From a virus: DNA of 64,000 bases. Of the stretch, positions 21,794 to 57,149 are shown in pieces. The stretch is from positions 32,001-96,000 of IMG/VR virus record IMGVR_UViG_3300037475_000032; one strand, written 5' to 3'. The translations under genes and the position numbers were made by a program. The notes under the pieces are model-generated. The model worked only from the letters and a program-made list of their open reading frames with translations, did no database searches and was not told the DNA's origin. Each line of letters starts with the position of its first letter. Position 1 is the stretch's first letter.

Positions 21794-23761
21794 CTATGTT
21801 GCGCCAAGCAGGATGTACAGCAAATCTTCACGGGTCAACTTGGCGGACATCGACTCCTCGAAAGCGGCTCCGTCATAGAGGGCCTTGTGGTAGCCGTGCT
21901 TGGTGGCGATGATGTCCTGCTTGCGTTCCTCAATCGAGTCCGCCATGAGCAAGTCGTACCAGTAGTTGAACGGGAGGATAGAGTCGGCCCTGACGTTACG
22001 CATCCTCTGACGCTTGCGGACCCACGTCCACGGCAGGTTGTAGTTGACACCTACGGCGGCCTCTGGAAGGTCAATGGAGTCGGCTCCACGATCACTGGAG
22101 AGGAAGACTCGGATGCTTGGATCTTCACGGAATCGGTCCTTGGCGGCATCGGCCTGTTTCTGCGAGCCCTCGTACGTGACATAGCTAACGCCCCATTCAT
22201 CGAGCGCCGTGGTGAGCGGCTTCATCCCGTAGCTGGCCCAGGTCATGAAGATCAGAACCTTCTCATCCGGGTGCTTCTCCAAGATGATCTCCCTCAGGGT
22301 CTCCAACTTCGTGTGTCCCTTGTCCGTGGGTGCCTTCGGAAGGGCCTCCAGGAGCGTCATAGCGACCTCTGAGCCCTTTGGACCCGTCAGGGCAGGCAAC
22401 CCCTCCATATCGTCCTCGAATTCGCTTAGGAGCAGTTCGAAGGCATTACGATTCTTGGCCGACTCCACGATCATGGATGGCGCATCGCAGACCATCTGCA
22501 TGACCTGGATGAGTGAGAGAACGCACGAGTCATCGAAGTCGGCCTCGATCATCTCCTTGGCCTTCCCCGTGAGTACGTCATAGACGCGCCTCTGCGTCGG
22601 ATGCCAGTCGATGAGCAGCGGGTCCTCAATCACCTTGGGGAAGTACTTGGCAACCTCCGGGTCATCTCGGCTCACGCGATGGGTCATGTGTTCTAGGCGT
22701 GGCTCCAGCTTGTCGAGGTTGATCCACTTCTCGGGCTTATGGGAGAACGGATTCTTGTAGCCCACGTACTCCCCCTCGAACTCCTCGACACGACCCAGGA
22801 GTGGCGGATTCATCATGCGGATGCAGTTGAACTGCCCTTCGGGCGAATTCTCAATGGGAGTAGCCGATAGCTCGAACTGTCGCATCCAGGCAGCACGCGA
22901 CAGCGCACCCTCAAGACCTTCCTCCTTCGAGGTAAAGCGACTCCATAGGCACTTCTTGACGGCCTTGTAGAGGATCGTGTTGCGGTTGCTCAGACGAGTT
23001 GGCATCTCGTCCCAGAAGAACAACACATCGCGGTCCTCAAGCACCACGGCGAAGAACTCGTGATCCTCACGGTACTTCTCGTAGTTGGTGATCGCTACGA
23101 CTTTCTCACCTGCCATGAGGCGGTCCTGGATTTCCTCATAGATCTTCCAGCGACGCTTAGGCGGCCCATCGATGATGACCGACTCCACATCCGCTAGGCG
23201 CATGAGCTTCTTCTGCATGTCACGCTTGTTGTTCGACTTGACGACAACGAACGCGAGATCAAATGGGTGACCATGCTCCATATGCCACAGGATGGCGCTG
23301 GCGATGAAGGCGGTCTTACCTGTGCCGGTATCCCACACCACGCATCCGGCGTTTAAACGCTCGTCTCGGATGAGCTTGTTGAATCCGGTAATCTGCCACG
23401 GAAGCATCCCGTTCTGCGTACCCTCAAGGGTAGAGTTGAGGGAGAACGGTGGAAGATCGTGCAGATGGTCGTAGGCGTGCAGGATGTCTTCGGGCGGATC
23501 GGTGAAGACCACCTGATACCCCGACTCCTGCGCATACGAGAGGAAGTTGTCTAGACCCGCAGGTGAGACCGTGCGGTAGTGACCGATGATCTCCTCGAAG
23601 TCAAAGAAGAAGTCCGGCTGTAGTGACTCCACGGACCATCGGCCTTGGAAGTCCTCGCTCGGCGAGAGAAAGAGCCACAGACCTTGGTCGTCACGAGACA
23701 GACCATCTAGTCTCTCGACTAGCGCCTCATCAAGAAGGTGATATCTCTGTCCATCGACCAT
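21794..23761 (-). CDS. SNF2-family helicase
   Basis: WDTGTGKT, WDEM, SATPIEN, DSIDL, NYNLPW motifs. Confidence 0.85.
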   Translation of the reverse strand: MVDGQRYHLLDEALVERLDGLSRDDQGLWLFLSPSEDFQGRWSVESLQPDFFFDFEEIIGHYRTVSPAGLDNFLSYAQESGYQVVFTDPPEDILHAYDHLHDLPPFSLNSTLEGTQNGMLPWQITGFNKLIRDERLNAGCVVWDTGTGKTAFIASAILWHMEHGHPFDLAFVVVKSNNKRDMQKKLMRLADVESVIIDGPPKRRWKIYEEIQDRLMAGEKVVAITNYEKYREDHEFFAVVLEDRDVLFFWDEMPTRLSNRNTILYKAVKKCLWSRFTSKEEGLEGALSRAAWMRQFELSATPIENSPEGQFNCIRMMNPPLLGRVEEFEGEYVGYKNPFSHKPEKWINLDKLEPRLEHMTHRVSRDDPEVAKYFPKVIEDPLLIDWHPTQRRVYDVLTGKAKEMIEADFDDSCVLSLIQVMQMVCDAPSMIVESAKNRNAFELLLSEFEDDMEGLPALTGPKGSEVAMTLLEALPKAPTDKGHTKLETLREIILEKHPDEKVLIFMTWASYGMKPLTTALDEWGVSYVTYEGSQKQADAAKDRFREDPSIRVFLSSDRGADSIDLPEAAVGVNYNLPWTWVRKRQRMRNVRADSILPFNYWYDLLMADSIEERKQDIIATKHGYHKALYDGAAFEESMSAKLTREDLLYILLGAT

Positions 23762-24062
23762 TCTCTCTGACCTCGATCCTCAGGTTTCCTTCCGCCATCA
23801 TGGAGTCGATGTCGGGGGCGCAGGTAGCCATCTTACGAGCCCATAGCTGGAACTCTTTTGACTTCGCCATGCGGACGAACGCATTGCGCTTGTTGAGCCC
23901 CTGCGTACGCTCCTCACGGCTTTCACCCCTTGCGCCGCTAGGCTCATGGATGATCCTGACCGCTGTATCTCGCTTGTTCTGGTTCTGACCGCCCGGACCT
24001 CCGGCACGAAACGTTTGCACGATGCAGTCCTTGATCGTGACGGTCGAGATCTTCTCGCGCAT
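23730..24062 (-). CDS. RF-1 domain (GGQ) peptidyl-tRNA hydrolase, ArfB-like
   Basis: FRAGGPGGQNQNKRDTAVRIIH; no codon-recognition domain. Confidence 0.9.
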   Translation of the reverse strand: MREKISTVTIKDCIVQTFRAGGPGGQNQNKRDTAVRIIHEPSGARGESREERTQGLNKRNAFVRMAKSKEFQLWARKMATCAPDIDSMMAEGNLRIEVRENGRWTEISPS

Positions 24063-24844
24063 CACTCCACTATATCAGCGTCGTCGGGTGCCTCTTCGGC
24101 TTCGATAGGAGGCGGTAGCTGCAAGCCCTCCTCGACGGCGAACTCGACATCATCCATCTGACGCAGACGCCTAACTTCGTTGACGATCTTCTGGTTCGTT
24201 TCATCGTCGCAGACGTTCTTGACGGCTCGGATGAAGATGCGAAGTGAAGTCTCGGCCTCATCGCCCTTGACCTGCGACGAGTTGGATTCCATCTCGTTGA
24301 CGAGCTTTATCATCTGGATGAGATCACGGACCTCAGCCGTGACCACGCCGTTGATGACATCCTCGTACGTCTTGCCGATGAGTACCTTCAATACCCCTCG
24401 GCTTGTCAACGCCCCCTGAACCCCTTCGCGGTAGTTCTGTTTGATGAGATCGGCCTCTTCCTCAAGCTGAGCACGCACAACGGCGTCATCAATCGCCATG
24501 TGCTTCTTCGAATGGTTGGAGATGGAGCGTCGGTCGATCTTCTCGCCGTTGGCATCCGGTGGGATGGACTCAGCTAGGGCCGAGAGGGAAACCATTCCCT
24601 TCACTAGCTGGCGCTCGATGTAGACGCGATACTCGCTTGTACATACCTTGCAGCGTGGCTCCGTAATCATCGGCGGAGCAAGCGCCTTCTCCCTCATGGC
24701 GATCTCGAAGCGATCCTCGTCCTGCCATGACTTCTGGAGATCCTTGCCGGTGGTTTTATCCAACACCTCACGGCGCTTCTTGCGCTCGATGTCGCTGACT
24801 CCTACCTCTCCATCGGTGTCTACGTCGCGTTCTAGATCGGGCAT
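24062..24844 (-). CDS. Hypothetical protein (CxxC, HTH-like)
   Basis: Coupled ORF with genome-like codon usage. Confidence 0.6.
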   Translation of the reverse strand: MPDLERDVDTDGEVGVSDIERKKRREVLDKTTGKDLQKSWQDEDRFEIAMREKALAPPMITEPRCKVCTSEYRVYIERQLVKGMVSLSALAESIPPDANGEKIDRRSISNHSKKHMAIDDAVVRAQLEEEADLIKQNYREGVQGALTSRGVLKVLIGKTYEDVINGVVTAEVRDLIQMIKLVNEMESNSSQVKGDEAETSLRIFIRAVKNVCDDETNQKIVNEVRRLRQMDDVEFAVEEGLQLPPPIEAEEAPDDADIVE

Positions 24845-46645: not shown

Positions 46646-46718
46646 GCCCTTGTAGCCCAACGGACAAGGCACTCGCCTTCTAAGCGAGCGATTGGGGGTT
46701 CGATTCCCTCCAAGGGCG
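46646..46718 (+). tRNA. tRNA-Arg(TCT)
   Basis: Cloverleaf; TTCGA T-loop. Confidence 0.9.
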
Positions 46719-46899
46719 CTACCGGCTTTACTCCCACCGGACATACTCAACGGGAGTGCGCAGGGTAAAAACCTACGTTGGCAGCGGTAACCATACCGCA
46801 ATGCGGGGATGTGCTCCCGTGGCCCCTAAGCCTAACAGCCGGGGTCTAGTTGCCACAGTCGAGGTCGCGCCCGGAAAAGTAGTGTCCTGCGTTCAACAT

Positions 46900-46983
46900 G
46901 CGTGTCAGGTGACTATCGGTTTGTCTCAGCGGGCTGTAACCCCGTGGCCTCTGGCTTGGAAGGTTCGACTCCTTCGGCACGCA
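46900..46983 (+). tRNA. tRNA-Tyr(GTA)
   Basis: Cloverleaf with variable arm. Confidence 0.85.
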
Positions 46984-46987
46984 CTCT

Positions 46988-47070
46988 GCGCAAATGATGG
47001 AATGGTAGACATGCTGTCTTGAGGAGGCAGTGCCCTAACGGGCGTGAGGGTTCGACTCCCTCTTTGCGCA
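46988..47070 (+). tRNA. tRNA-Leu(GAG)
   Basis: Cloverleaf. Confidence 0.9.
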
Positions 47071-47074
47071 TCAT

Positions 47075-47156
47075 GCCGAAGTGATGGAATGGTAGACGTG
47101 CCACGCTTAGAACGTGGTGCCCTTGTGGCGTGCGGGTTCGACTCCCGCCTTCGGCA
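47075..47156 (+). tRNA. tRNA-Leu(TAG)
   Basis: Cloverleaf. Confidence 0.9.
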
Positions 47157-47158
47157 CT

Positions 47159-47231
47159 TGCAGTAAGGTGGTCTGGATGACCATTTGTGGCTCATATCCA
47201 CAAGAGGAGAGTTCGATTCTCTCTGCTGCTA
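47159..47231 (+). tRNA. tRNA-Met(CAT), 1:72 mismatch
   Basis: Cloverleaf. Confidence 0.75.
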
Positions 47232-47234
47232 TAC

Positions 47235-47316
47235 GTCTCTGTGGTGGAACTGGCAGACACGCACGGTTCAAACCCGTGTGCCATTTGGCGTGAGGGTTCG
47301 ACTCCCTCCAGGGACA
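47235..47316 (+). tRNA. tRNA-Leu(CAA)
   Basis: Cloverleaf. Confidence 0.9.
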
Positions 47317-47326
47317 TGTAGTACGA

Positions 47327-47399
47327 GGGGCTATAGCTCAGTTGGGAGAGCATCGCGCTGGCAGTGCGAGGGTCAGGGGTTCGAGTCCCCTTAGCTCCA
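47327..47399 (+). tRNA. tRNA-Ala(GGC)
   Basis: Cloverleaf; G3:U70. Confidence 0.92.
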
Positions 47400-47499
47400 T
47401 CGTCGCTTCCGGGTTGCCCGTGCCAGCGGGGACCGGACAAACACACTCCCTGGCAGGAGTGGAACAATACGGCCACAAGTGCCGGGCGGATGAAGTTTA

Positions 47500-47573
47500 C
47501 AGAACGTGGCGCAGCTTGGTAGCGTGCTCCCTTGGGGTGGGAGAGGTCGCGGGTTCAAATCCCGCCGTTCTGA
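47500..47573 (+). tRNA. tRNA-Pro(GGG)
   Basis: Cloverleaf. Confidence 0.9.
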
Positions 47574-47577
47574 CTGA

Positions 47578-47648
47578 CGGGGACAAGTGTTATGGCCGCA
47601 CGGGGCGTTTGGGGCGCTCTAGTCAGAGTTCGATTCTCTGGTCCCCGA
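47578..47648 (+). tRNA. tRNA-Pro(TGG)
   Basis: Cloverleaf. Confidence 0.85.
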
Positions 47649-47746
47649 TAGCGTTGATGGTAAGTCGTGTCTAGGTGACAGGTGCCGGATCACCACTCAT
47701 TGAGTGCCGGAACAACATCGAGTCAACCGTCGCGGTCAACGCATAG

Positions 47747-47820
47747 CAGGATATGGCGCAGTCTGGTAGCGCGCTCCCCTCGGACGGGAGAGGTCGGAGG
47801 TTCGAATCCTCTTATCCTGA
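47747..47820 (+). tRNA. tRNA-Pro(CGG)
   Basis: Cloverleaf. Confidence 0.9.
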
Positions 47821-47921
47821 TAGTCGGAAACCCTCGCGCAAGGGCGTATTGGAAGGGAGTCATGACCCCGAAGACATCGGAAGTAGCGGACAAAGGTACG
47901 CCTACCCGGTGCGGCTAACAT

Positions 47922-47993
47922 GCCTACATGGTGTAAGTGGTATCATCCTGACCTGGTACGTCAGTGTCCCGAGTTCGATTCTCGGTGTAGGCT
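47922..47993 (+). tRNA. tRNA-Thr(GGT)
   Basis: Cloverleaf. Confidence 0.88.
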
Positions 47994-47994
47994 T

Positions 47995-48186
47995 ATGGTA
48001 TGCAAGAGTGGAAAGAGAACATATCCCTCGAAGCGGCAAGCTGCTAAGCGAGCCGTGAATCTCAGCATCCAGGAAGGGAAGGGTCTTTGGCCGTACAAGT
48101 GCCCGGAATGTCCCGATTGGCACTTGACATCGAAACGGCCGTCGAAGCGCTCTTACAAGTGCCGCGATGGGACCCGCAACCGATAG
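47995..48186 (+). CDS. Small basic Zn-finger-like protein
   Basis: CKSGKRTY..YKCPECPDWHLTS. Confidence 0.6.
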   Translation: MVCKSGKRTYPSKRQAAKRAVNLSIQEGKGLWPYKCPECPDWHLTSKRPSKRSYKCRDGTRNR

Positions 48187-48189
48187 CTT

Positions 48190-48261
48190 GCCTGCTAGGT
48201 GTTTACGGTGGCACACTTCACTCGTAATGAAGAGGACGGGGCTCGAATCCCCGAGTGGGCT
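48190..48261 (+). tRNA. tRNA-Thr(CGT)
   Basis: Cloverleaf; T-loop CTCGAAT. Confidence 0.8.
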
Positions 48262-48266
48262 TAGAT

Positions 48267-48335
48267 GGGGTGTAGGTCATGGTGACCAATCGGATTCCAA
48301 ACCCGAAGGCGAGCGTTCGATTCGTTCACGCCCCG
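48267..48335 (+). tRNA. tRNA-Trp(CCA)
   Basis: Compact cloverleaf. Confidence 0.75.
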
Positions 48336-48445
48336 CTCGACGTGCTGCAAGCGACGGCTTGTAGAGTTGTGGTGCTGTAGTCGAAGGCACGCGCCAGCAA
48401 CAATGCTGCCCGTGGACAGGCTTAAAACCTCTCTCGCGGGCTTTT

Positions 48446-48519
48446 GGTTCCTTAGCTCAGTTGGTTAGAGCGCCGCCCTGTCAAGGCGGAGGTCACGGGT
48501 TCGAGTCCCGCAGGGACCG
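48446..48519 (+). tRNA. tRNA-Asp(GTC)
   Basis: Cloverleaf. Confidence 0.92.
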
Positions 48520-48525
48520 CTTCAT

Positions 48526-48597
48526 GCGTTCGTATGGTTAGTGGTAGACCCTCCGACTTTTAATCGGAAAGCTGGGGTTCGATTCCCCACGAACGCA
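48526..48597 (+). tRNA. tRNA-Lys(TTT)
   Basis: Cloverleaf. Confidence 0.85.
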
Positions 48598-48767
48598 CTA
48601 GACGTGGTGACCGTCTAAGAAGGTGTAGGCCCTTGTTAGGGTTGAACCTCGTAAACTCACCACCGCCCGGTTCCCTACACCGGCAAAGGCACGGTAGGGC
48701 GTGTCATGACAATAGAGGGGTTCACGTTCCCGTCAGGGAGTCGTGCTTCGTCTCGGCGGTTCTACTT

Positions 48768-48842
48768 AGACCCTTAGCTTAGATGGCCTAAAGCGTCGGT
48801 TTTACACACCGAAGATCCTGGGTTCGAAACCCAGAGGGTCTA
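48768..48842 (+). tRNA. tRNA-Val(TAC)
   Basis: Cloverleaf. Confidence 0.88.
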
Positions 48843-48883
48843 CTTGCGTCAGGTTCTTTTCCTCCTTTCTTCCTGACGCTTTT

Positions 48884-48955
48884 GGGCGACTAGCTCATTG
48901 GGAGAGCGCCTGCGTGACATGCAGGAGGTACGGGGTTCGATCCCCCGGCCGCCCA
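48884..48955 (+). tRNA. tRNA-Val(GAC)
   Basis: Cloverleaf. Confidence 0.88.
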
Positions 48956-48966
48956 CTGTAGTACAT

Positions 48967-49389
48967 GGGCCTGACAGGCTTCGACTTCATGAGAGGCTGT
49001 TGGCGTCATGCAGCGGTATGGACACACCTTAAGGTCCAACGTCATAATCGGCAACGATACAGACACGCTAGCAATCCCGGCATCGTTCCTTGCAGGTGAG
49101 CAGATGGCTCCTGCGGAGGTTCACGTCGGAGGCGCAGCACTCGCACTGGTTTAGACCCCAGTGCCGGGTTTCTCACACTCCCTGTGAACAGAAAGTGTGA
49201 GTGGTGCATCAGTGCAAGCTCGTACCGTAGTAATGCAGGATGGTAGCCCCGCGCGTTTTCCTAGTTTCCCGATATGAACTAGGTGGTGGAAAAGATGGCG
49301 GCAAGCCCGTCGTCCCCGGTAGTGAAAGCTGCTAGACAATGACCCAAAGAAGCGCATGGAACACGAGGGTTCGATTCCCTCCAGGTCCA
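48967..49389 (+). ncRNA. ssrA: tmRNA
   Basis: GGGCCTG/CAGGTCC-A acceptor with G3:U70; GG.TTCGAC 5' motif; T-arm; tag ORF 49050-49154 ending AALALV. Confidence 0.92.
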
Positions 49390-49393
49390 CTAT

Positions 49394-49465
49394 CTCCTTA
49401 TAGTCCAATGGATAAGACGACCGCCTCCTAAGCGGTAGATTCAGGTTCGACTCCTGATGGGGAGA
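49394..49465 (+). tRNA. tRNA-Arg(CCT)
   Basis: Cloverleaf. Confidence 0.88.
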
Positions 49466-49565
49466 CTCTTGTAGCGCCCTAGCCATTGCGAAGGGCTCGG
49501 TTGCGGGGAACGGACAGATAATCTCGCTTCCAAGTGGTCTGTCACTTGTGGTGTCTATGAGAAAT

Positions 49566-49653
49566 GGAAAGACGGCAACGGCTGGCGACGCAGCTTCCCT
49601 GCTAAGGAAGTGGTCCTTCATTGGGCCTATGGGTTCGATCCCCATTCTTTCCG
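49566..49653 (+). tRNA. tRNA-Ser(GCT)
   Basis: Cloverleaf; long variable arm; G73. Confidence 0.85.
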
Positions 49654-49805
49654 CTCAATCTTGGTCGTAGGCTATTCCCTACCACAGCTAGAGTTCGAAC
49701 TGGCAAGGGGAGTAAGACGATAGCCCCGCTGCGGAGCGGATCAGCCCGGATCTCGTGCCTACACAAAACGGACAGTAAGTAGCCGGGGCCTACCAAGATG
49801 TTCAT

Positions 49806-49877
49806 TCTCCTGTGGCGCAATGGCAGCGCGGCAGCCTGTTAAGCTGACGGTTGAAGGTTCGAGTCCTTCCGGGAGAG
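49806..49877 (+). tRNA. tRNA-Asn(GTT)
   Basis: Cloverleaf. Confidence 0.9.
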
Positions 49878-49879
49878 CT

Positions 49880-50233
49880 ATGGTTCGTAACTGTAAGAAG
49901 CACGGAGAGGTGAGACATCGATCTCGCGGAAAGCGAGGTTGGCGTTGTACTCTCTGCGCCAACGAATCAGTCTCGAACAGTCGCAGAAAGATCAAGCGTA
50001 TCCTTGTGGAAGAACACGGAAGCGCTTGCAAGATCTGTGGCTACAATCGTTGTATCGCGGCCCTTCACTTTCATCATGTCGATCCAGAGACTAAGAGCTT
50101 TGGGGTCGCGGCAGGAGGAAGTGCAAGGTCGCTCAAGAGAGCACGCGAAGAGGCCGCCAAGTGCGTCCTTTTGTGCTCGAACTGCCACGCCGAGATAGAG
50201 GCTGGCATTACGTCCCTGTGGCCGAATGGTTAG
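49880..50233 (+). CDS. HNH homing endonuclease
   Basis: CKICGY..LHFHHVDP..KCVLLCSNCH. Confidence 0.85.
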   Translation: MVRNCKKHGEVRHRSRGKRGWRCTLCANESVSNSRRKIKRILVEEHGSACKICGYNRCIAALHFHHVDPETKSFGVAAGGSARSLKRAREEAAKCVLLCSNCHAEIEAGITSLWPNG

Positions 50234-50282
50234 GTACGCGGCTGCAACCCGTGGTATGCAGGTTCGACTCCTGTCAGGGACT
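50212..50282 (+). tRNA. tRNA-Cys(GCA)
   Basis: Cloverleaf; U73; overlaps HNH stop. Confidence 0.88.
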
Positions 50283-50326
50283 TGCAGGTAGCGGCGTCTG
50301 CCTGAGATGGCTCAACGCCGCGCTTT

Positions 50327-50412
50327 GGAAGGTGACCGGCATGGACGAGGACACCGCCTTGAAAGCGGCTGGGGACTAACCGCCCTCAAGGGTTCGATTC
50401 CCTTACCTTCCG
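50327..50412 (+). tRNA. tRNA-Ser(TGA)
   Basis: Cloverleaf. Confidence 0.85.
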
Positions 50413-50443
50413 CTCCTATCCCCGCAAAGCAAAGGATTGTATC

Positions 50444-50857
50444 TTGAGAGCAGTCATGTACCTCTTTGCCAACAAAGGGCTCGGCATGTCGTCGGGCAAG
50501 ATGTCGGCACAAGTGGCCCACGCAGCGGTCGAGGCATTTCACATCAGCGATCCCGAGTTGGTTGCTCAGTGGTACGTCGGCGGCCATTACTGCAAGTACG
50601 TGATGGCAGCGGAGGATGAAGTTCACCTTCACACCATCAAGTACTACCTGGAGCAGCGGGGCTTCAAGACGAAGCTCATTGTCGATGAGGGTCACACGGA
50701 GATCCGTCCTCATACGGCTACGGCTCTGGGTGTCGAGATCGTGGACAAGGATGACGCTCATGTCGCTGCCACGTTCGGAGACTTCAAGATCTACCGCGAT
50801 CCTCCAGTGCGTCCTAAACCGGATAAGCTGAGGCGTCGTAGGTGGTATCACTCATAG
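50444..50857 (+). CDS. pth2: Peptidyl-tRNA hydrolase, Pth2 family
   Basis: LGMSSGKMSAQVAHAAV..IVDEGHTEI..TALG. Confidence 0.88.
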   Translation: MRAVMYLFANKGLGMSSGKMSAQVAHAAVEAFHISDPELVAQWYVGGHYCKYVMAAEDEVHLHTIKYYLEQRGFKTKLIVDEGHTEIRPHTATALGVEIVDKDDAHVAATFGDFKIYRDPPVRPKPDKLRRRRWYHS

Positions 50858-50882
50858 CAGTCAAGTCAAGGAGAAAAGAACA

Positions 50883-51086
50883 GTGGCACTACTCGCAAGA
50901 CAGGACAACACCCCCCCCGCACTCGCCGCTGAGCTAGATGCTCACAAGCAGCGCTATCAGGCGGGCCGCGCATCGGTCATCGAGCGTGGGACTCAGAGGG
51001 TCGCCCAGATCAAGCACCTCCAGAAGGAGCTTGAGGCTGAGGCTTCCGCCCATCAAGCTGTGTTGGAGCAAGCACACCAGTCGTAA
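50883..51086 (+). CDS. Small coiled-coil protein
   Basis: AAGGAG RBS. Confidence 0.55.
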   Translation: MALLARQDNTPPALAAELDAHKQRYQAGRASVIERGTQRVAQIKHLQKELEAEASAHQAVLEQAHQS

Positions 51087-51104
51087 GACAGCAAGGGAGT
51101 CGTC

Positions 51105-51320
51105 GTGTTTACCGAAGACGAGATAAAGGCATTGGTCGCGCACGCTGTACACATGGCACGCACGACGACTCCTGGAAATGTCTGCAATGAGGCAGTCGTA
51201 CAGCAGGTCATGAAGGAAGAGTTCGTGCCCGGACAGGGATGGAAGTCCAAGTACTTCACATCCGATGAGCGCCCGGAGACGGACTTGATCGATCTTTGGC
51301 TCTCAGAGCCACGTATCTAG
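51105..51320 (+). CDS. Hypothetical protein
   Basis: AGGGAG RBS. Confidence 0.5.
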   Translation: MFTEDEIKALVAHAVHMARTTTPGNVCNEAVVQQVMKEEFVPGQGWKSKYFTSDERPETDLIDLWLSEPRI

Positions 51321-51407
51321 GAAGGTACGCGAATGGTTAGCACGCTGCTTGGAAAGCAGTTGGTCGTTTAAACGCACGGCTTGTGGGTTCGAGTCCCATG
51401 CCTTCCG
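51320..51407 (+). tRNA. tRNA-Ser(GGA)
   Basis: Cloverleaf. Confidence 0.85.
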
Positions 51408-51411
51408 CTCT

Positions 51412-51496
51412 GGATAGTACGCGAATGGAAAGCAGCCTGCCTCGAAAACAGGTGTAGGGTGAAAGTCCTTTCTGGGTTCGAGTCCCAGGCTATCCG
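51412..51496 (+). tRNA. tRNA-Ser(CGA)
   Basis: Cloverleaf. Confidence 0.85.
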
Positions 51497-51499
51497 TAA

Positions 51500-51571
51500 G
51501 GCGATTTAGCTCACTGGTAGAGCGGCACGCTGAAAACGTGCGCGTACCGAGTTCGATTCTCGGAATCGCCA
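51500..51571 (+). tRNA. tRNA-Phe(GAA)
   Basis: Cloverleaf. Confidence 0.9.
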
Positions 51572-51594
51572 TCCATCCTGGTCCATAATAGGTG

Positions 51595-52077
51595 ATGCAA
51601 CCAGGAGATTTCATCCTTTGTCACCGTAAGGGGATCGTCAGCAGTATCATCCGTCTTGGTGAGCGCATACGCTTCCGTTCGGGTGACAGATGGTCCCACG
51701 TCGCCATCGTGGAGAACGATGAATGGATCATCGAGGCTCTGACGAAAGGCGTAGTGCGTTCACACATCTCAGTCTATGACAAGACCGAGAAGCTGCTTGT
51801 CAGCAGCGGCCTAGATGAGCACGACCGCCCGCAGGCTGTCGCCTTCGCTCAAAGCTGTGTGGGGCAGAAATACGGATGGCTCATCATCTTCGGAATCGCT
51901 CTGCGCTTCCTCACTCCGGGTCGAGGTCTTTGGTTCGGCTCAGATGGCAGTGAGATTTGCAGTGGCCTTGTGGCCCAGGCGTTGGTGCGTGGCCCGAAGA
52001 TCTTCAAGGTCAACCCTGCTAGCATCACTCCAGCGGAGTTGGCGGAAGAATACGCTGTACCGCACAAGAGCAAGTAG
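51595..52077 (+). CDS. Permuted papain-like NlpC/P60 (YiiX/YebB family) enzyme
   Basis: QPGDFIL..WSHVAI..IIEA..GQKY..ICSGLV. Confidence 0.8.
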   Translation: MQPGDFILCHRKGIVSSIIRLGERIRFRSGDRWSHVAIVENDEWIIEALTKGVVRSHISVYDKTEKLLVSSGLDEHDRPQAVAFAQSCVGQKYGWLIIFGIALRFLTPGRGLWFGSDGSEICSGLVAQALVRGPKIFKVNPASITPAELAEEYAVPHKSK

Positions 52078-52150
52078 GGGTTGGTAGCTCAACTGGCAGA
52101 GCAGGGGCCTCTTAAGCCCAAGGTTGAGGGTTCGATTCCCTCCCAACCCA
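52078..52150 (+). tRNA. tRNA-Lys(CTT)
   Basis: Cloverleaf. Confidence 0.88.
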
Positions 52151-52155
52151 CTCAT

Positions 52156-52227
52156 AGGAACATGGTGAAATGGTAATCACGACTCTCTGATACGGAGTTA
52201 TTCTGGGTTCGATTCCCAGTGTTCCTA
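52156..52227 (+). tRNA. tRNA-Ile(GAT)
   Basis: Cloverleaf. Confidence 0.88.
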
Positions 52228-52233
52228 CTGCAT

Positions 52234-52304
52234 GGCCCGGTCGTCCATGGGTAGGACCGTTGTTTCTCAGGCAACAAAACAGGGTTCGAGTCCCTGTCGG
52301 GCTA
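52234..52304 (+). tRNA. tRNA-Glu(CTC)
   Basis: Cloverleaf. Confidence 0.85.
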
Positions 52305-52462
52305 CTACTAATCAACCTCCTTGGAGGTAGATACAGGTCGGAGGTTCAGGTTGTCGCGCGCAGCCATCACGATCTCTGACCGGCCCGTGGATTCCCGTAT
52401 GAGGTGAGGTAAAATCTCACTGTGCCGTAACGGGATGGTGGAGGAAGCGACGGCGATTACGA

Positions 52463-52536
52463 CGCGGAGTGGAGCAGTCTGGAAGCTCGCTTGGCCCATA
52501 ACCAAGAGGTCGGGGGTTCGAATCCCTCCTCCGCTA
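52463..52536 (+). tRNA. tRNA-fMet(CAT)
   Basis: CGCGGAG start; C1 mismatch; GGAGCAG D-arm. Confidence 0.88.
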
Positions 52537-52600
52537 TACGGATGAAAACATGCACATGTACCCACTTCATGTGTACGTTTTCCTCCAATGATGTGTACAT

Positions 52601-52674
52601 TGCTCGTTAGGGGAATTGGCAGACCCGCTCGGCTCTGAACCGAGAGTATCCAGGTTCGACCCCTGGACGAGCAG
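52601..52674 (+). tRNA. tRNA-Gln(CTG)
   Basis: Cloverleaf; U1-A72. Confidence 0.88.
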
Positions 52675-52680
52675 CTTCTT

Positions 52681-52752
52681 TCCGGGATCGTACAATCGGC
52701 AGTACGGCGGACTCTGAATCCGCAAATCGAGGTTCGAGCCCTTGTCCCGGAG
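52681..52752 (+). tRNA. tRNA-Gln(CTG), second copy
   Basis: Cloverleaf. Confidence 0.88.
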
Positions 52753-52847
52753 CTAATACAGCGTCACCGTTGGGTGACCGGAGGTCCGTCAGATGGCGGC
52801 CGTACGGGTGAGCGCTACCGCTTTCGGGTGAGAGTCCCGACTTACAT

Positions 52848-52942
52848 GCGTCTGTAGCTGAATGGTAGAGTCGGCCTCAAAAACCGGCCACAGCACTGGG
52901 TTTTCACCCCAGCGGATGCGGGTTCAAGTCCCGTCAGGCGCA
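52848..52942 (+). tRNA. Atypical 95-nt tRNA, probably Glu(TTC) with a D-loop insertion
   Basis: Acceptor and T arms canonical; two anticodon-like arms. Confidence 0.65.
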
Positions 52943-52947
52943 CTCAT

Positions 52948-53022
52948 TGGGGAATAGAATATGCTGGTATGTTCGCCTGACTTTGAATCAGGAGGCCGTG
53001 GGTTCGATTCCTACTTCCCCAG
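52948..53022 (+). tRNA. tRNA-Gln(TTG)
   Basis: Cloverleaf. Confidence 0.88.
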
Positions 53023-53026
53023 CTTT

Positions 53027-53129
53027 GCCCTTGTGGCGGAATCGGCATACGCATCCGGCTTAAACCCGGCCACGCGAGCTTCCTCTCAACAAGGTCTCGC
53101 ACTTGAGGGTTCGACTCCCTCCAAGGGCA
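53027..53129 (+). tRNA. tRNA-Leu(TAA) with extended variable arm (103 nt)
   Basis: Cloverleaf. Confidence 0.8.
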
Positions 53130-53207
53130 CTTCGCCCCAGATCCGCCTCTGCTCGATACTGCGACGGCAGTGAGTATGCGCCTGGGGCCACGAATGTAGT
53201 GAACCAT

Positions 53208-53280
53208 GGCGTGGTTCGTATATCGGTCAATACTCCAGGTTGTGAACCTGGCAAGATGGGTTCGATTCCCATACCTCGCC
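53208..53280 (+). tRNA. tRNA-His(GTG) with G-1
   Basis: Cloverleaf; C73. Confidence 0.85.
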
Positions 53281-53282
53281 CT

Positions 53283-53356
53283 GTGAGCGATCCCGAAGTG
53301 GTCGAGGGTCCGGGTTGTGATTCCGGCGTAGGCGAGTTCGAGTCTCGTCGCTCACC
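53283..53356 (+). tRNA. tRNA-His(GTG), second copy
   Basis: Cloverleaf; C73; no encoded G-1. Confidence 0.82.
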
Positions 53357-53388
53357 CTTTTCTTCGTGCTCCTCATCCGTAATGGATG

Positions 53389-53724
53389 ATGTTCCGCAAA
53401 GGCAATACGGTCCCACTCAGAGAGTACTTCGAGGCTCTACGTGTTGCCGACCAACGAGCCCTCCAGATCAAGGAGGTAGCGGACAAGGATGCACTCAGGC
53501 TGGCTCGTGAGATCCAGACGTACAAGGACGAGAAGGCTAACGAGCTACGCAGTCAGATCGAGCGAGAACAAGGCGAACGTGCCACCAAGAAGGAACTGCA
53601 AGATCTGGCAGACCGCATCCAGGAGGAACGCCACACGGGCGGTCTCGATACACGCACATTGGTCGTTAGCATAGTCCTGATTCTTGTGGGTATAGCTGCG
53701 ATCATCGGGCCACATATTCACTAA
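53389..53724 (+). CDS. Coiled-coil protein with C-terminal TM helix (possible lysis accessory)
   Basis: Hydrophobic C terminus; late motif at start. Confidence 0.6.
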   Translation: MFRKGNTVPLREYFEALRVADQRALQIKEVADKDALRLAREIQTYKDEKANELRSQIEREQGERATKKELQDLADRIQEERHTGGLDTRTLVVSIVLILVGIAAIIGPHIH

Positions 53725-53728
53725 CTTT

Positions 53729-53802
53729 GCTCCTCTGGTGTAACGGTTAGCACAACTGGTCTTATAAGCAGTCAGGTCGGGGTTCAAATCCTCGGGGGAG
53801 TA
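53729..53802 (+). tRNA. tRNA-Ile(TAT), irregular anticodon stem
   Basis: Cloverleaf; ACTG-GT-CTTATAA-G-CAGT. Confidence 0.7.
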
Positions 53803-53814
53803 CTTGCAGCATAC

Positions 53815-53889
53815 GGGTGTGTACCAAATGTTGGCTTTGGAACTGGCTCTTAACCAGAGTACACGCAGGTTCGATTCCTGTCACGCCCA
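53815..53889 (+). tRNA. tRNA-Lys(CTT), second divergent copy
   Basis: Cloverleaf. Confidence 0.75.
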
Positions 53890-53935
53890 TGGGTGGTCCG
53901 CGAGGACATTGCGGGTTCGAGTCCCGTCATGGACA
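53890..53935 (+). pseudogene. 3' half of a Leu-type tRNA (variable arm, T-arm, acceptor strand)
   Basis: GTCC-GCGA-GGAC; GCGGG-TTCGAGT-CCCGT; CATGGAC-A. Confidence 0.65.
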
Positions 53936-54033
53936 CAACGCCGTTACCTGTGTGTACAGCAGGTGCGCTCGATTCTAGATAGAGCGAGGCCAAGTGCTCG
54001 TGTATGCTAACTGGTAAAGCAGCCCTAACGCTT

Positions 54034-54108
54034 GTCGCCATCGTCTAGCCTGGTTCAGGACGCGGCCCTCTCACGGCCGAAACACGGGTTCAAATCCCGT
54101 TGGCGGTA
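54034..54108 (+). tRNA. tRNA-Glu(CTC), second copy
   Basis: Cloverleaf. Confidence 0.88.
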
Positions 54109-54135
54109 CTTGCTCAGATGTGGTATCCTACCGCC

Positions 54136-54771
54136 ATGAGTCGCGCTAGACCATGGAGGGATCAGGAGACCGGACAAACCCACTGGTTTGACTACCGTTC
54201 TTCCTCCGCCACAGTCGAGCAACTTGAGATCTTGGCCGATGCAGAGGGTCTTGATCTTGACGACCTACTTGACGAGGGCCTGTCGCAAAGGCAGGTGTTG
54301 TTTCGGCTACATGCCGTCACTAACCTCATCCCGGAGAGAGTCCTGGAGCGCAGGCAAGAACGCCTCGAACGCTCCCAGGTCGAACCGATCTGCCGGATAT
54401 GCAGCTTGTACGGATGGGAGTGCGAGGGTAAGATCACTCGTCACCATTTCGTGCCAAGGTGGCTCATGCGAGAGCTTGATAGCTACCAGACCTACGCCGC
54501 GAAGGCGAGGTGTACCATCCCCGTGTGTGTCGGTCGCCACCGCGATCTTCACTACAGGGAAAGTGATATTGACAAGAGCATCGTTCCGTACCTAACGGCT
54601 GAGGAGAAGGAGCTAGCACGCATCCTACTCCAAGAGCTAAAGGACGAGCGTCCAACGATCTACGAGTTGATCGGCGGCGGAAGTACTGCGAGCTACGAGT
54701 ACCAGCTTGTCCGAGACTTTAGGCGAGGAGGTTTCGAGTCAGTGACACATGGAGAAATTGAAGGTCCATAG
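54136..54771 (+). CDS. HNH-like endonuclease
   Basis: CRIC..TRHHFVPR..IPVC..HRDLH; TGgTATCCT 6 nt before ATG. Confidence 0.65.
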   Translation: MSRARPWRDQETGQTHWFDYRSSSATVEQLEILADAEGLDLDDLLDEGLSQRQVLFRLHAVTNLIPERVLERRQERLERSQVEPICRICSLYGWECEGKITRHHFVPRWLMRELDSYQTYAAKARCTIPVCVGRHRDLHYRESDIDKSIVPYLTAEEKELARILLQELKDERPTIYELIGGGSTASYEYQLVRDFRRGGFESVTHGEIEGP

Positions 54772-54811
54772 CCTTACGCCGTGAGTGAGGGCGAAAATAC
54801 TCACTCAGCTA

Positions 54812-54884
54812 CTCCTCGTGGTCCAGTGGATAAGACGCTGCCCTGCGAAGGCGGAGATCGGAGGTTCGAGTCCTCCCGAGGAGA
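54812..54884 (+). tRNA. tRNA-Arg(GCG)
   Basis: Cloverleaf; CTGCC-CT-GCG-AA-GGCGG. Confidence 0.85.
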
Positions 54885-54973
54885 CTAGATGCGGTGGCCC
54901 AAGTGAGAGGCAGCCCGACAAGGGAAGAGTTGCCGGAATCCAAACCCGGCTCGCATCTGCTATTGTAGTTCTT

Positions 54974-55047
54974 GCCCATATCGCCTAACGGACATGGCAC
55001 CAGTCTTCGAAACTGGCACAATCCGGGTTCGACTCCCGGTGTGGGCG
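54974..55047 (+). tRNA. tRNA-Arg(TCG)
   Basis: Cloverleaf. Confidence 0.88.
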
Positions 55048-55302
55048 CTAGGAAGGTAGCTCCTTCCCAGAGGGACGAGAGAAGTCCGCGACAACCAAGA
55101 TGGACTGTGAGGGAGTTGCGGGGTAAGGTTCGCTACCGGCTTACATCTGGGCTATTCAGTCAACGCACCAGAGGGCCAAAGGGTAGGTCCCATCTCTTCG
55201 TTCCTTGTCTTTAGGCTCCTGCCGCTGACCTGAAAAGGCGGGAGTAGGTCAGAAGGCCCACGGTGCGCTACCAGCACTGCGATGTTCGCCCGTGGGACCC
55301 TT

Positions 55303-55374
55303 GGGGTAGTCGTATAACGGCGATTACAGCAGCTTGCCATGTTGCAGACGGGGGTTCGACTCCCCTCTACCCCT
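55303..55374 (+). tRNA. tRNA-Gly(GCC)
   Basis: Cloverleaf; U73. Confidence 0.85.
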
Positions 55375-55498
55375 CTTCGCCGCAGGCGATGGTGAGCGCA
55401 GTCAGGAGTGAGCACGCAGCAGCAAGTTAGTACGGTACAGTACGGTTGGGGACTCATAAACCCTATACTTGCGGCGCACGTCCGCACGTACTAATCAC

Positions 55499-55572
55499 GC
55501 ACTTGTAGCTCAGATGGTAAGAGCACTGGCTTGAAACCCCAGGTGTCGGAGAGTCGAAACCTCCCAAGTGCA
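55499..55572 (+). tRNA. tRNA-Phe(GAA), second copy with degenerate T-arm
   Basis: Acceptor and D arms perfect; T-loop GTCGAAA. Confidence 0.65.
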
Positions 55573-55863
55573 TGTAGTAGACGGCCGCTGTCCCTAGACT
55601 GGGGATAGAGGAAGTTCGGGACATCCTGGCCTGGGAAACTGGGTCGCTTCCGTAACCAGGAGGCATAGACAACTGACGTGTGGCGGGAGCCCTTGGCGCT
55701 TGAACCGAGCACGGTTGGTGAGGATGCAATCTCAAGCAGCGAAACCTAAGGGCTCTGCCTATGGTCATAGCGGGTTGGGAGCAGCGTGGGGATAACACCC
55801 TATACGCCACGCGCGAGCGTGAGAAAGATGGTCGTCCTAGACAGAATCCCGGCTACAGCTACA
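55573..55863 (+). ncRNA. rnpB: RNase P RNA (catalytic subunit), reduced S-domain
   Basis: CR-I GAGGAAGTTCGGGA (55608); CR-IV AGAAAGATG; CR-V ACAGAATCCCGGCTA (55841); P1-P5, P15 and P18(GCGA) all pair. Confidence 0.85.
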
Positions 55864-55867
55864 GTAT

Positions 55868-55939
55868 GCCTGCTAAGCATAAATGGTGATGCACTGGTCT
55901 TGTAAACCAGATAACTGGGTTCGATTCCCAGAGTAGGCT
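55868..55939 (+). tRNA. tRNA-Thr(TGT)
   Basis: Cloverleaf. Confidence 0.88.
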
Positions 55940-55968
55940 TCTCGCTCCATCCCTCGACTTAAGAGGTG

Positions 55969-56457
55969 ATGAGTGACTTTCGTGTGATCCAAGGATGCCC
56001 GTGTAACCCTACACTGGCCCCGTACATCGCCATGGTCTCTGAGGAGATCAACGGTGTCGTCAACAGTATCTATCGTGGTGCTGATGCCGAGTCGATCCTT
56101 CGAGCACACGGACACCAGAGTCAGGCCCAACTCTACAACGGTTGGATTCACAGGTTGCCGGGATACCTTCCCGCTAACCCTCCTGGCCGAAGCACTCACG
56201 AGCTTCGCTCCGATGGAGTCGCTTACGCGGGTCCGGTAGGTCGCAAGCTCGATTGGTGGCAGCAGGGCTTCGACGTGAATGACGATCAGGTCAATCACTG
56301 GAAGTCCGCAGCACGCAGCCATGGATGGGTACTCTTTCAGCCGTACAACAGCGGCTCCGAGTTCCACCACCTCAACTTCCATCAGCCTCCGCATCCGCCG
56401 AGTCTGAGAACGAGATTGAGGATCATCAAGTTGCGAGCGACGCTGCCACGTCACTAA
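55969..56457 (+). CDS. M15-family Zn peptidase (endolysin-type)
   Basis: SIYRG..QAQLY..ANPPGRSTHE..GFDV..SEFHHL. Confidence 0.7.
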   Translation: MSDFRVIQGCPCNPTLAPYIAMVSEEINGVVNSIYRGADAESILRAHGHQSQAQLYNGWIHRLPGYLPANPPGRSTHELRSDGVAYAGPVGRKLDWWQQGFDVNDDQVNHWKSAARSHGWVLFQPYNSGSEFHHLNFHQPPHPPSLRTRLRIIKLRATLPRH

Positions 56458-56461
56458 TCAT

Positions 56462-56533
56462 GGGGGATTAGTGCTAATGGGAACACGCTGCCCTTGCAAG
56501 GCAGAGTTACGGGTTCGACTCCCGTATCCTCCA
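56462..56533 (+). tRNA. tRNA-Ala(TGC)
   Basis: Cloverleaf; G3:U70. Confidence 0.9.
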
Positions 56534-56535
56534 CT

Positions 56536-56603
56536 GCGCACGTAGTCTAAGTAGGACGCCCGCCATGAGGCGGGTAGTGCAGGTCCGACCCCTGCCGTGT
56601 GCT
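56536..56603 (+). ncRNA. tRNA-Gly-like RNA lacking a canonical anticodon loop
   Basis: All stems pair; anticodon arm CCCGCC-ATGA-GGCGGG. Confidence 0.65.
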
Positions 56604-56607
56604 CTAT

Positions 56608-56678
56608 GCGGGTATGGTCTAATGGTATGACAAGTGCCTTCCAAGCTCTTGATGCCGGTTCGATTCCGGCTATCCGCT
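56608..56678 (+). tRNA. tRNA-Gly(TCC)
   Basis: Cloverleaf. Confidence 0.88.
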
Positions 56679-56784
56679 CTCTGTGAGCCCCAGACGCGCC
56701 ATCCGTGCGGGAATAGACGGCCGTCACCAATACCGGAATGTGTCTCGGGTGTAAACGACCATGAACACGGCGCTCATAGTACCC

Positions 56785-56856
56785 GGTTCCATAGTGAAAC
56801 GGCCATCACGCTAGCCTGTCACGCTGGAGGTAGGGGTTCGATTCCCCTTGGGACCG
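56785..56856 (+). tRNA. tRNA-Asp(GTC), second copy
   Basis: Cloverleaf. Confidence 0.88.
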
Positions 56857-57003
56857 CTTAGGCTATACAGACCGGGCACATCAGCCCGGACGCTGAGCTA
56901 ACTCTCGTCGTCCTTGCCATGTGCCGCACCCCGGATTAGGGAGTACATGGGCGTCGAGTTACACGAGTAGCCGATCATCCGTGCAAGCGGTAGGTGAAAG
57001 CCA

Positions 57004-57074
57004 CGCTCTCAGGCGATGGCAGCCAAACGGAGTCATAATCCGTCTAGGTGTGGGTTCGAGTCCCACGGGAGCGA
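57004..57074 (+). tRNA. tRNA-Met(CAT), third CAU tRNA
   Basis: Cloverleaf. Confidence 0.75.
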
Positions 57075-57149
57075 CTAACAACCGGGCGCGATATCCTCGA
57101 CACAGGACTCTCATCTTAGTTTTCTTTGAGTCCTGGCGCGGAATAAGTG

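Follow-up and report, generated by a model that had tools for sequence, protein, structure and literature searches.

Positions 46646-57075 of the viral DNA analyzed here carry, on the plus strand, a co-oriented array of 49 transfer RNA (tRNA) genes, a transfer-messenger RNA (tmRNA) gene, a gene for ribonuclease P (RNase P) RNA and a few small open reading frames (ORFs), as identified with ARAGORN and Rfam. The stretch that was analyzed, referred to here as the window, is 64,000 nucleotides (nt) long and comprises bases 32001-96000 of IMG/VR record IMGVR_UViG_3300037475_000032, a complete virus genome of 160,765 bp with direct terminal repeats; coordinates are those of the window unless stated otherwise. 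The GC content of the window is about 57%. The block is probably a phage translation-supply island equipped with its own reduced RNase P RNA, which would act on the precursor tRNAs (pre-tRNAs) of the array. Related loci used for comparison are referred to by L numbers.

The RNase P RNA gene (55573-55867, plus strand, 295 nt) was identified as a reduced type-A form by a match to the Rfam model RF00010, by covariation and by a profile match. The RF00010 match extends from 55569 to 55870 and covers model positions 1-367, i.e. the whole model, with a score of 38.6 bits (E = 1e-10); viral relatives score 39-55 bits. As all of these scores lie below the Rfam threshold, phage RNase P RNAs are overlooked by standard annotation. 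The gene abuts a tRNA on either side. The 3' end of a tRNA-Phe gene at 55572 sets the 5' end of the RNA, and the 3' end of the RNA is the predicted 5' RNase P cleavage site of tRNA-Thr(UGU), which starts at 55868, 4 nt past the 3' strand of helix P1.

Helices P1 (55573-77/55859-63), P2 (55580-86/55830-36), P3 (55588-94/55602-08), P5 (55622-27/55721-26) and P15 (55730-33/55777-80) were all located in the window copy, together with the GGU motif of P15 (L15; 55773-75). Conserved regions (CR) CR-I (GAGGAAGUUCGGG, 55608-20) and CR-V (ACAGAAUCCCGGCUA, 55841-55) were placed by the RF00010 alignment and by reading of the sequence, and CR-IV (AGAAAGAU, 55822-29) by reading of the sequence. These elements follow one another in the bacterial order, and P4 forms between CR-I and CR-V with its bulged U retained. 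Judged by its sequence, the RNA descends from bacterial type A and has retained the catalytic domain, that is P1-P5, P15 with its GGU, CR-I, CR-IV and CR-V. The specificity domain (P7-P14) has been replaced: 29, 25 and 40 nt (about 94) of the window copy face three stretches of the model that do not align, with 15, 15 and 110 positions (about 140). The P5 strands of the window copy enclose just 93 nt. CR-II and CR-III were recognized neither in the Rfam alignment nor by reading of the window RNA. Local hairpins within the replacement covary with L002. Compared with the canonical P4 of L154, the window P4 has equal length and an equal bulge, and differs by A-U to G-C, G-C to U-G and C-G to G-C. 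The alternative that the window P4 is one base pair shorter was rejected on this comparison.

IMG/VR was searched by two motif scans, which returned an RNase P RNA family of at least 46 loci, in each of which the two core motifs lie 140-573 nt from one another. From among the matches listed, 41 non-redundant sequences (<93% identical), the window copy included, were taken for alignment. CR-I, CR-IV and CR-V are all found in 41 of 41 members, CR-IV (AGRNNNAU) at a fixed distance from CR-V. The majority of the loci lie in or next to dense tRNA arrays, with up to 35 tRNAs per 10-20 kb; about a dozen have a tRNA abutting both ends of the RNase P RNA, and in at least 12 members a tRNA follows closely on its 3' side. 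Family members range from about 190-200 nt to more than 600 nt. The largest, L116 (11461-12118), has an insertion of about 350 nt resembling an HNH-type reading frame, and that of L014 (11954-12453) measures about 200 nt; either may be intron-like or mark the invasion of the ribozyme gene by a homing endonuclease.

The fold was assessed by pair counting in alignment A2, which was made with MAFFT, fitted to no structure, with the helices taken from the window copy. As the P1 of the window copy is one column off the majority in A2, the majority register was used to count this helix. The 39 pairs of P1, P2, P3, P4, P5 and P15 were 84.0% paired, compared with 65.0% in shuffled alignments (0 of 500 reached the observed value) and 34-43% with slid partners. 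Changes on both sides were seen in 32 of the 39 pairs, with 297 double-change cells against 118 in shuffles, and the covariation score was 0.46 (0.16 shuffled and about 0.1 slid). The eight pairs of P4 are nearly invariant (98.5% paired over the 41 sequences), the terminal pair being A-U in 23 and G-C in 13. RNAalifold, run on a MAFFT alignment, recovered P4 alone. For P1 and P2, duplexes of cognate strands exceed those of non-cognate strands in stability by 4-6 kcal/mol. In the homologue from L002, a 160-kb contig reached via the peptidyl-tRNA hydrolase Pth2, both P3 and a GNRA hairpin display compensatory changes. A sequence-only profile hidden Markov model, for which 32 copies from the other phage class were used and the window copy and its eight nearest relatives were left out, gave a sole match in the 160,765-bp genome, at window positions 55601-55858 (E = 7e-12).

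L154, found via a neighboring protein, carries a 397-nt copy with a canonical bacterial P4 at the same position in the gene order, directly before tRNA-Thr(UGU). The order of an ORF of the family represented in the window at 54136-54771, RNase P RNA and tRNA-Thr(UGU) is conserved. The family member L129 led to the cultured Stenotrophomonas phage vB_SmaS-DLP_6 (DLP6; KU682439.2), in which positions 105774-106022 (L143, 2314-2562) hold a 249-nt RNase P RNA within a tRNA array (54.7 bits, E = 8e-16), unannotated in GenBank. This copy lies 3 nt 5' of tRNA-Arg(CCG), and its P4 has a compensatory GCG/CGC change. Another member, L105, matched Salmonella rnpB in blastn, in a record whose annotation reads 'RNA component of RNase P'. 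When three RNase P RNAs were compared to GenBank phages by blastn, no usable match was obtained for the window copy or a mini form; leads came from L105 and L129 alone. The P4 variant together with the variant CR-V was also searched for in prokaryotes, with one genome for each of 185,579 species, and gave 0 and 3 matches in two size classes; the three are short contigs of metagenome-assembled genomes, two of them with tRNA clusters. Given this near-absence, the P4 variant appears to be essentially viral. The genes present, the conservation of the fold, the RNA family and its genomic context are direct observations.

The array in which the RNA is embedded is a complete decoding set. ARAGORN identified 46 tRNAs and the tmRNA, all on the plus strand between 46646 and 57075, and no tRNA in the rest of the 160,765-bp genome. 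Rfam supplied three further tRNAs that ARAGORN overlooked (52848-52942, 53027-53129 and 55499-55572), which brings the total to 49. Their anticodons represent all 20 amino acids and, under standard wobble rules, decode 61 of 61 sense codons, provided that the gene at 53729-53803 is a tRNA-Ile(UAU). ARAGORN draws this gene with a 6-nt anticodon loop, and an alternative drawing gives a 7-nt loop with a weak stem; its positional orthologue in L154 is a tRNA-Ile(UAU). None of the 50 tRNA and tmRNA genes encodes CCA, and 24 intergenic gaps between adjacent RNA genes of the array measure 0-11 nt. The discriminator base is followed by C-U in 34 and by U in 13 of the 50 genes. The same trailer signature is typical of the CCA-less arrays at L002, L019, L138 and L005, and it may signal 3' processing or partly mimic CCA for the GGU motif of the ribozyme. 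Position -1 is a U in 30 of the 50 genes, against 21% T across the region; U at this position is a recognized preference of bacterial RNase P. Duplicate tRNAs for Gln, His, Lys, Glu, Asp, Phe and Met are 57-72% identical to one another. A preliminary description of the region, made from its letters, had reported a co-oriented island for tRNA production and ribosome rescue with about 48 closely spaced tRNAs for all 20 amino acids, essentially no encoded CCA, divergent duplicates of these seven classes and an RNase P RNA. The gene content, the common strand, the count of 49, the gap lengths and the duplicate identities agree with it, and the RNase P RNA is confirmed by the full-model RF00010 match and the comparative evidence.

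Several genes of the array depart from ordinary tRNAs. Of the two tRNAs that flank the ribozyme, tRNA-Thr(UGU) (55868-55939, plus strand) was found by ARAGORN and Rfam. The other (55499-55572, plus strand) is a divergent tRNA-Phe(GAA), the second of its kind, whose T arm is atypical; it scores 52.3 bits in Rfam with mismatched T-stem pairs and is negative in ARAGORN. The gene at 52848-52942, overlooked by ARAGORN, is a tRNA-Glu(UUC) with an additional hairpin of about 24 nt in the D loop (Rfam, 59.9 bits). Its relatives at L154 378-472 and L005 831-926 keep the length and the anticodon with a different insert sequence, and for this reason the additional arm seems to be under selection. The gene at 53027-53129 is a 103-nt tRNA-Leu(UAA), which ARAGORN reads only as an 'intron'; its variable arm, at about 33 nt, is close to double the normal size. 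A tRNA-like gene at 56536-56604 has no clear identity; ARAGORN gives it the 6-nt anticodon loop CAUGAG. The spacer 53890-54033 contains a tRNA T-arm remnant (GCGGGTTCGAGTCCCGT), so the array includes decayed tRNA copies. Between two tRNA-Val genes, at 48844-48883, a perfect 8-bp hairpin is followed by TTTT (folding z about -9) and may be a terminator or a processing signal within the array. A scan for promoters and terminators gave no signal above its own shuffles.

The phage also encodes a class II CCA-adding enzyme, at genome positions 108210-111701, outside the window. PolyA_pol head, RNA-binding and HD domains were matched (PF01743, 93 bits; PF12627, 37 bits; PF01966, 38 bits) at residues 716-1152 of a 1163-aa ORF. 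The enzyme thus occupies the C-terminal 450 residues or so, and the N-terminal 700 residues have a YunG-like match below the cut-off; a relative, G001, has a comparable 1135-aa frame. The arrays of the carriers of RNase P RNA fall into two classes. Most, DLP6 included, encode CCA on at least 90% of their tRNAs; those of the group of the window are wholly CCA-less, with C-U or U trailers. Among five carrier records tested, a CCA-adding enzyme match above the cut-off was found in two, the CCA-less L002 and L007 contigs, as in the genome of the window. Because the match co-occurs with CCA-less and not with CCA-encoding arrays, the enzyme is, as far as these records indicate, an adaptation to CCA-less precursors. 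The same cannot be said of the ribozyme: its specialization for CCA-less precursors was considered and rejected, as most of its carriers have arrays that encode CCA.

Other partners of tRNA maturation were not found. The genome has no match to RnpA (PF00825), none to Lactamase_B_2, the family of RNase Z, and none to the two large families of aminoacyl-tRNA synthetases that were searched. Charging, the trimming of 3' ends and probably also the RNase P protein must therefore come from the host. The preliminary description had named the CCA-adding enzyme and RtcB as genes to look for in the rest of the genome; the former is present and no RtcB was found. Its term 'self-contained' is overstated, as RnpA, RtcB and matches to Lactamase_B_2 and to the two synthetase families are all missing.

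The ribosome-rescue factors named in the preliminary description are likewise present. The tmRNA (48967-49390, plus strand) was found by ARAGORN and matches RF00023 over model positions 1-374 with 44.3 bits (E = 4.5e-15), just below the gathering score of 47. Its acceptor stem has 7 bp. The likely tag frame ends in GGAALALV* and resembles the tag of L002, AGDSLLALV* (end LLALV*); the tag proposed by ARAGORN, ASSYRSNAGW*, is probably wrong. A Pth2-type peptidyl-tRNA hydrolase is encoded at 50444-50857 (plus strand) and matches Pfam PF01981 over profile positions 2-114 of 115 (73.5 bits, cut-off 23; E = 2e-20). The Pth2 models of NCBIfam match at 5e-19, yet under their equivalog cut-offs, and copies in five related viral contigs are 52-60% identical. 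A third factor, 23 kb from the array at 23730-24065 (minus strand), has 111 residues, a Pfam RF-1 domain (E = 7e-15) and the motif GGPGGQ. It had been described as ArfB-like, and its GGQ/RF-1 domain is borne out. Against the ArfB equivalog model it reaches 29.7 bits (cut-off 100) over residues 12-41 only, and the PrfH and RF1/RF2 models score similarly; the product is best called a short GGQ-domain protein, putatively ArfB/PrfH-like. In L153 one tRNA array contains both Pth2 and an RF-1 domain gene, the latter adjoining a gene of the 54136-54771 family. This arrangement connects the GGQ gene of the window with the module despite the distance between them.

Two further ORFs lie within the array. 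The one at 49820-50233 (plus strand) matches HNH families in PHROG (best E = 1.8e-30) and is probably a homing endonuclease. In related loci a manA RNA motif below threshold (about 40 bits; gathering score 55) was seen at L002 9267-9500, L005 9146-9381 and L003 265-529 (minus strand), between tRNAs just upstream of Pth2; the corresponding window position has the HNH ORF instead and no manA match. The ORF at 54136-54771 (plus strand) encodes a conserved array protein, defined by its homologues, an AlphaFold2 model and the Cys/His motif CxxC...TRHH...CTIPxC...HxDLH. The family has at least 301 homologues, none with a Pfam domain, and always lies within tRNA arrays, 3' of tRNA-Glu(CUC); in L154 it is directly 5' of the RNase P RNA. 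No match was found in Pfam, NCBIfam or PHROGs. The mean predicted confidence (pLDDT) of the model was 60.6 from 5 sequences and 89.7 from a deeper alignment. Foldseek found nothing in the PDB at E ≤ 0.001, and in structure alignment with VIA-align all Z scores were at most 4.2, several HNH-type nucleases giving 3.0-3.7 over residues 83-160. The motif and these weak fold matches offer a lead towards an HNH-like protein.

How the island would work we infer from the sequences, and this holds for the catalysis of the RNase P RNA, for its protein partner and for its benefit. The array is most likely transcribed as long multi-tRNA precursors. As the RNase P RNA sits between two tRNAs, it would be freed by the same cuts that release its neighbors. 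It would then remove the 5' leaders of the phage pre-tRNAs, adding catalytic subunits to those of the cell. Since the phage lacks rnpA, its protein partner would be host RnpA, probably borrowed. With spacers of 0-11 nt, 5' cuts would leave very short 3' trailers on the upstream tRNAs, which host nucleases could trim before the phage CCA-adding enzyme completes the 3' ends. The tmRNA, Pth2 and the GGQ protein would deal with stalled ribosomes and peptidyl-tRNA. The benefit is most likely processing capacity and independence of the host while 49 tRNAs are expressed together.

Several points weigh against this proposal. The RF00010 score of the window copy is far under the Rfam gathering score of 100. 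The region by which bacterial RNase P RNA docks the tRNA elbow is replaced and unalignable, so that substrate recognition may differ or be weak, and the three substituted pairs of P4 lie beside the catalytic bulge. Neither this phage nor five other carriers yielded a gene for the RNase P protein, and activity in vivo is assumed to depend on a partnership with host RnpA. Finally, L153 has no detectable RNase P RNA at E ≤ 0.001; the RNA is therefore dispensable for some tRNA-array phages.

The purpose of the tRNA set can be read differently. As the preliminary description had suggested, the island might replace a host tRNA pool destroyed by anticodon nucleases, which could be of the PrrC, RloC, PARIS or retron type, the divergent duplicates being nuclease-resistant. 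The set is indeed complete for decoding, and some of the duplicates, at 57-72% identity, differ at loop positions 32 and 38. Known anticodon nucleases attack Lys, Glu, Gln, His and Asp tRNAs, and these classes are among the duplicates. However, the anticodon loops are otherwise canonical (U33 in 43 of 44, a purine at position 37 in 44 of 44), neither RtcB nor another repair ligase was found in the genome, and RNase P RNA is present in small arrays as well, with no more than 2-12 tRNAs within the stretches examined. The duplicated anticodons moreover decode five of the eight top codons (GAG 46, GAC 37, AAG 35, CAG 34 and TTC 29 per thousand), which are the most used two-codon-box codons of the phage; AUC and GCC are similarly used and have one tRNA each. 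Plain codon supply accounts for the duplicates equally well. We therefore hold replacement of a destroyed tRNA pool to be unlikely as the explanation of the island, if worth keeping in mind; codon supply, host independence and evasion of tRNA-cleaving defenses are all possible purposes.

A stronger version of the proposal grants the phages more autonomy. They may keep an RNase P ribozyme lineage of their own, with some members of 190-200 nt and many with the P4 variant, that is catalytically active and makes 5' maturation independent of host rnpB, either free of protein or with a phage protein such as that of the 54136-54771 family, whose position next to the RNA is constant. From the sequences at hand we consider this rather doubtful.

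The RNA might, on the other hand, not be catalytic at all. It could be a decoy that binds host RnpA and so stops host tRNA maturation, or a structured spacer or processing handle. Such roles would suit an RNA with most of its specificity domain absent, in a phage in which a protein subunit was not found, and the side that binds RnpA (P2, P3, CR-IV and CR-V) is its best-conserved part. Yet P4 with its bulged U, CR-I and the L15 GGU are invariant or compensated in the 41 sequences and DLP6, which neither a decoy nor a spacer would require, and the genes are located among their presumed substrates. We regard a non-catalytic role as quite improbable. That the RNA is a non-functional passenger, a decaying piece of host rnpB captured with host tRNA genes, would fit its low Rfam score and the mosaic nature of phage tRNA arrays with their tRNA remnants and homing endonucleases, but is hardly credible given the compensatory changes that preserve the fold across dozens of diverged phages, a P4 variant nearly absent from 185,579 prokaryote species, and the conserved order of 54136-family ORF, RNase P RNA and tRNA-Thr(UGU).

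An island with its own RNase P RNA can be set beside several known systems. With the bacterial type-A RNase P RNA (RF00010; E. coli M1 RNA, rnpB) the phage RNA shares P1-P5, P15, CR-I, CR-IV and CR-V, the bulged U of P4 and the L15 GGU. It differs in being encoded by a virus, within the array of its own substrates and in a genome without rnpA, and in its length of 295 nt (down to about 190-200 in relatives), its replaced specificity domain and three substituted P4 pairs. Type T RNase P RNA of Thermoproteaceae and engineered 'mini' RNase P RNAs reduced to the catalytic domain have likewise lost most or all of the specificity domain and kept the core. Compared by description only, these are archaeal or laboratory forms, unlike the phage RNA, which is bacterial-type and viral. 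In engineered cis conjugates of RNase P RNA and pre-tRNA (for example PMC3378863), the ribozyme is covalently linked to its substrate; in the phage a presumed substrate tRNA directly follows the ribozyme in a natural arrangement.

Among phages, the closest likeness is to cluster C mycobacteriophages (Bxz1 type) and other tRNA-array phages, which share a large co-oriented array with a tmRNA, a genome of about 155-160 kb and a DnaE-like polymerase. The polymerase of the window is 29-32% identical to its counterparts in Rhodococcus, Gordonia and Streptomyces phages, and this resemblance points to a putative actinobacterial host. Megablast of the array against GenBank phages revealed no close relative at the DNA level. 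Unlike the cluster C type, the set of the window decodes all codons and is wholly CCA-less. At E ≤ 0.01, RF00010 matched the positive control, DLP6, but gave nothing in Bxz1, Rhodococcus phage E3 or the Gordonia phages SCentae and Skog. RNase P RNA thus is an addition over these arrays, as the preliminary description had proposed. Theta ribozymes, which resemble that of hepatitis delta virus (HDV), occur beside tRNAs in gut phages and have a proposed role in tRNA maturation (PMC10879173). They too are phage ribozymes adjoining phage tRNA genes, but are small self-cleavers acting in cis, whereas the window RNA is predicted to act in trans as an RNase P RNA that makes 5' ends. With Rfam, at E ≤ 1, the array gave no match to an HDV-like ribozyme.

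RNase P RNA is regarded as a universal housekeeping ribozyme of cells. We found no report of a virus-encoded RNase P RNA in a search of the open literature that took in a review of RNase P from 2024 and the principal papers on tRNAs of phages, with subscription journals outside its scope. The tRNA array, tmRNA, Pth2 and CCA-adding enzyme are each individually known phage cargo. If the RNA is active, a further component of the translation apparatus, and one that is an RNA enzyme, would be added to those carried by viruses, and the purpose of phage tRNAs would become testable in the cultured Stenotrophomonas phage DLP6. The family would also provide natural minimal RNase P RNAs in which the catalytic domain can be studied without the specificity domain. 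Should the phages prove to keep an active ribozyme lineage of their own, it would be the first RNase P to be encoded by a virus, and a minimal version of this enzyme provided by nature.

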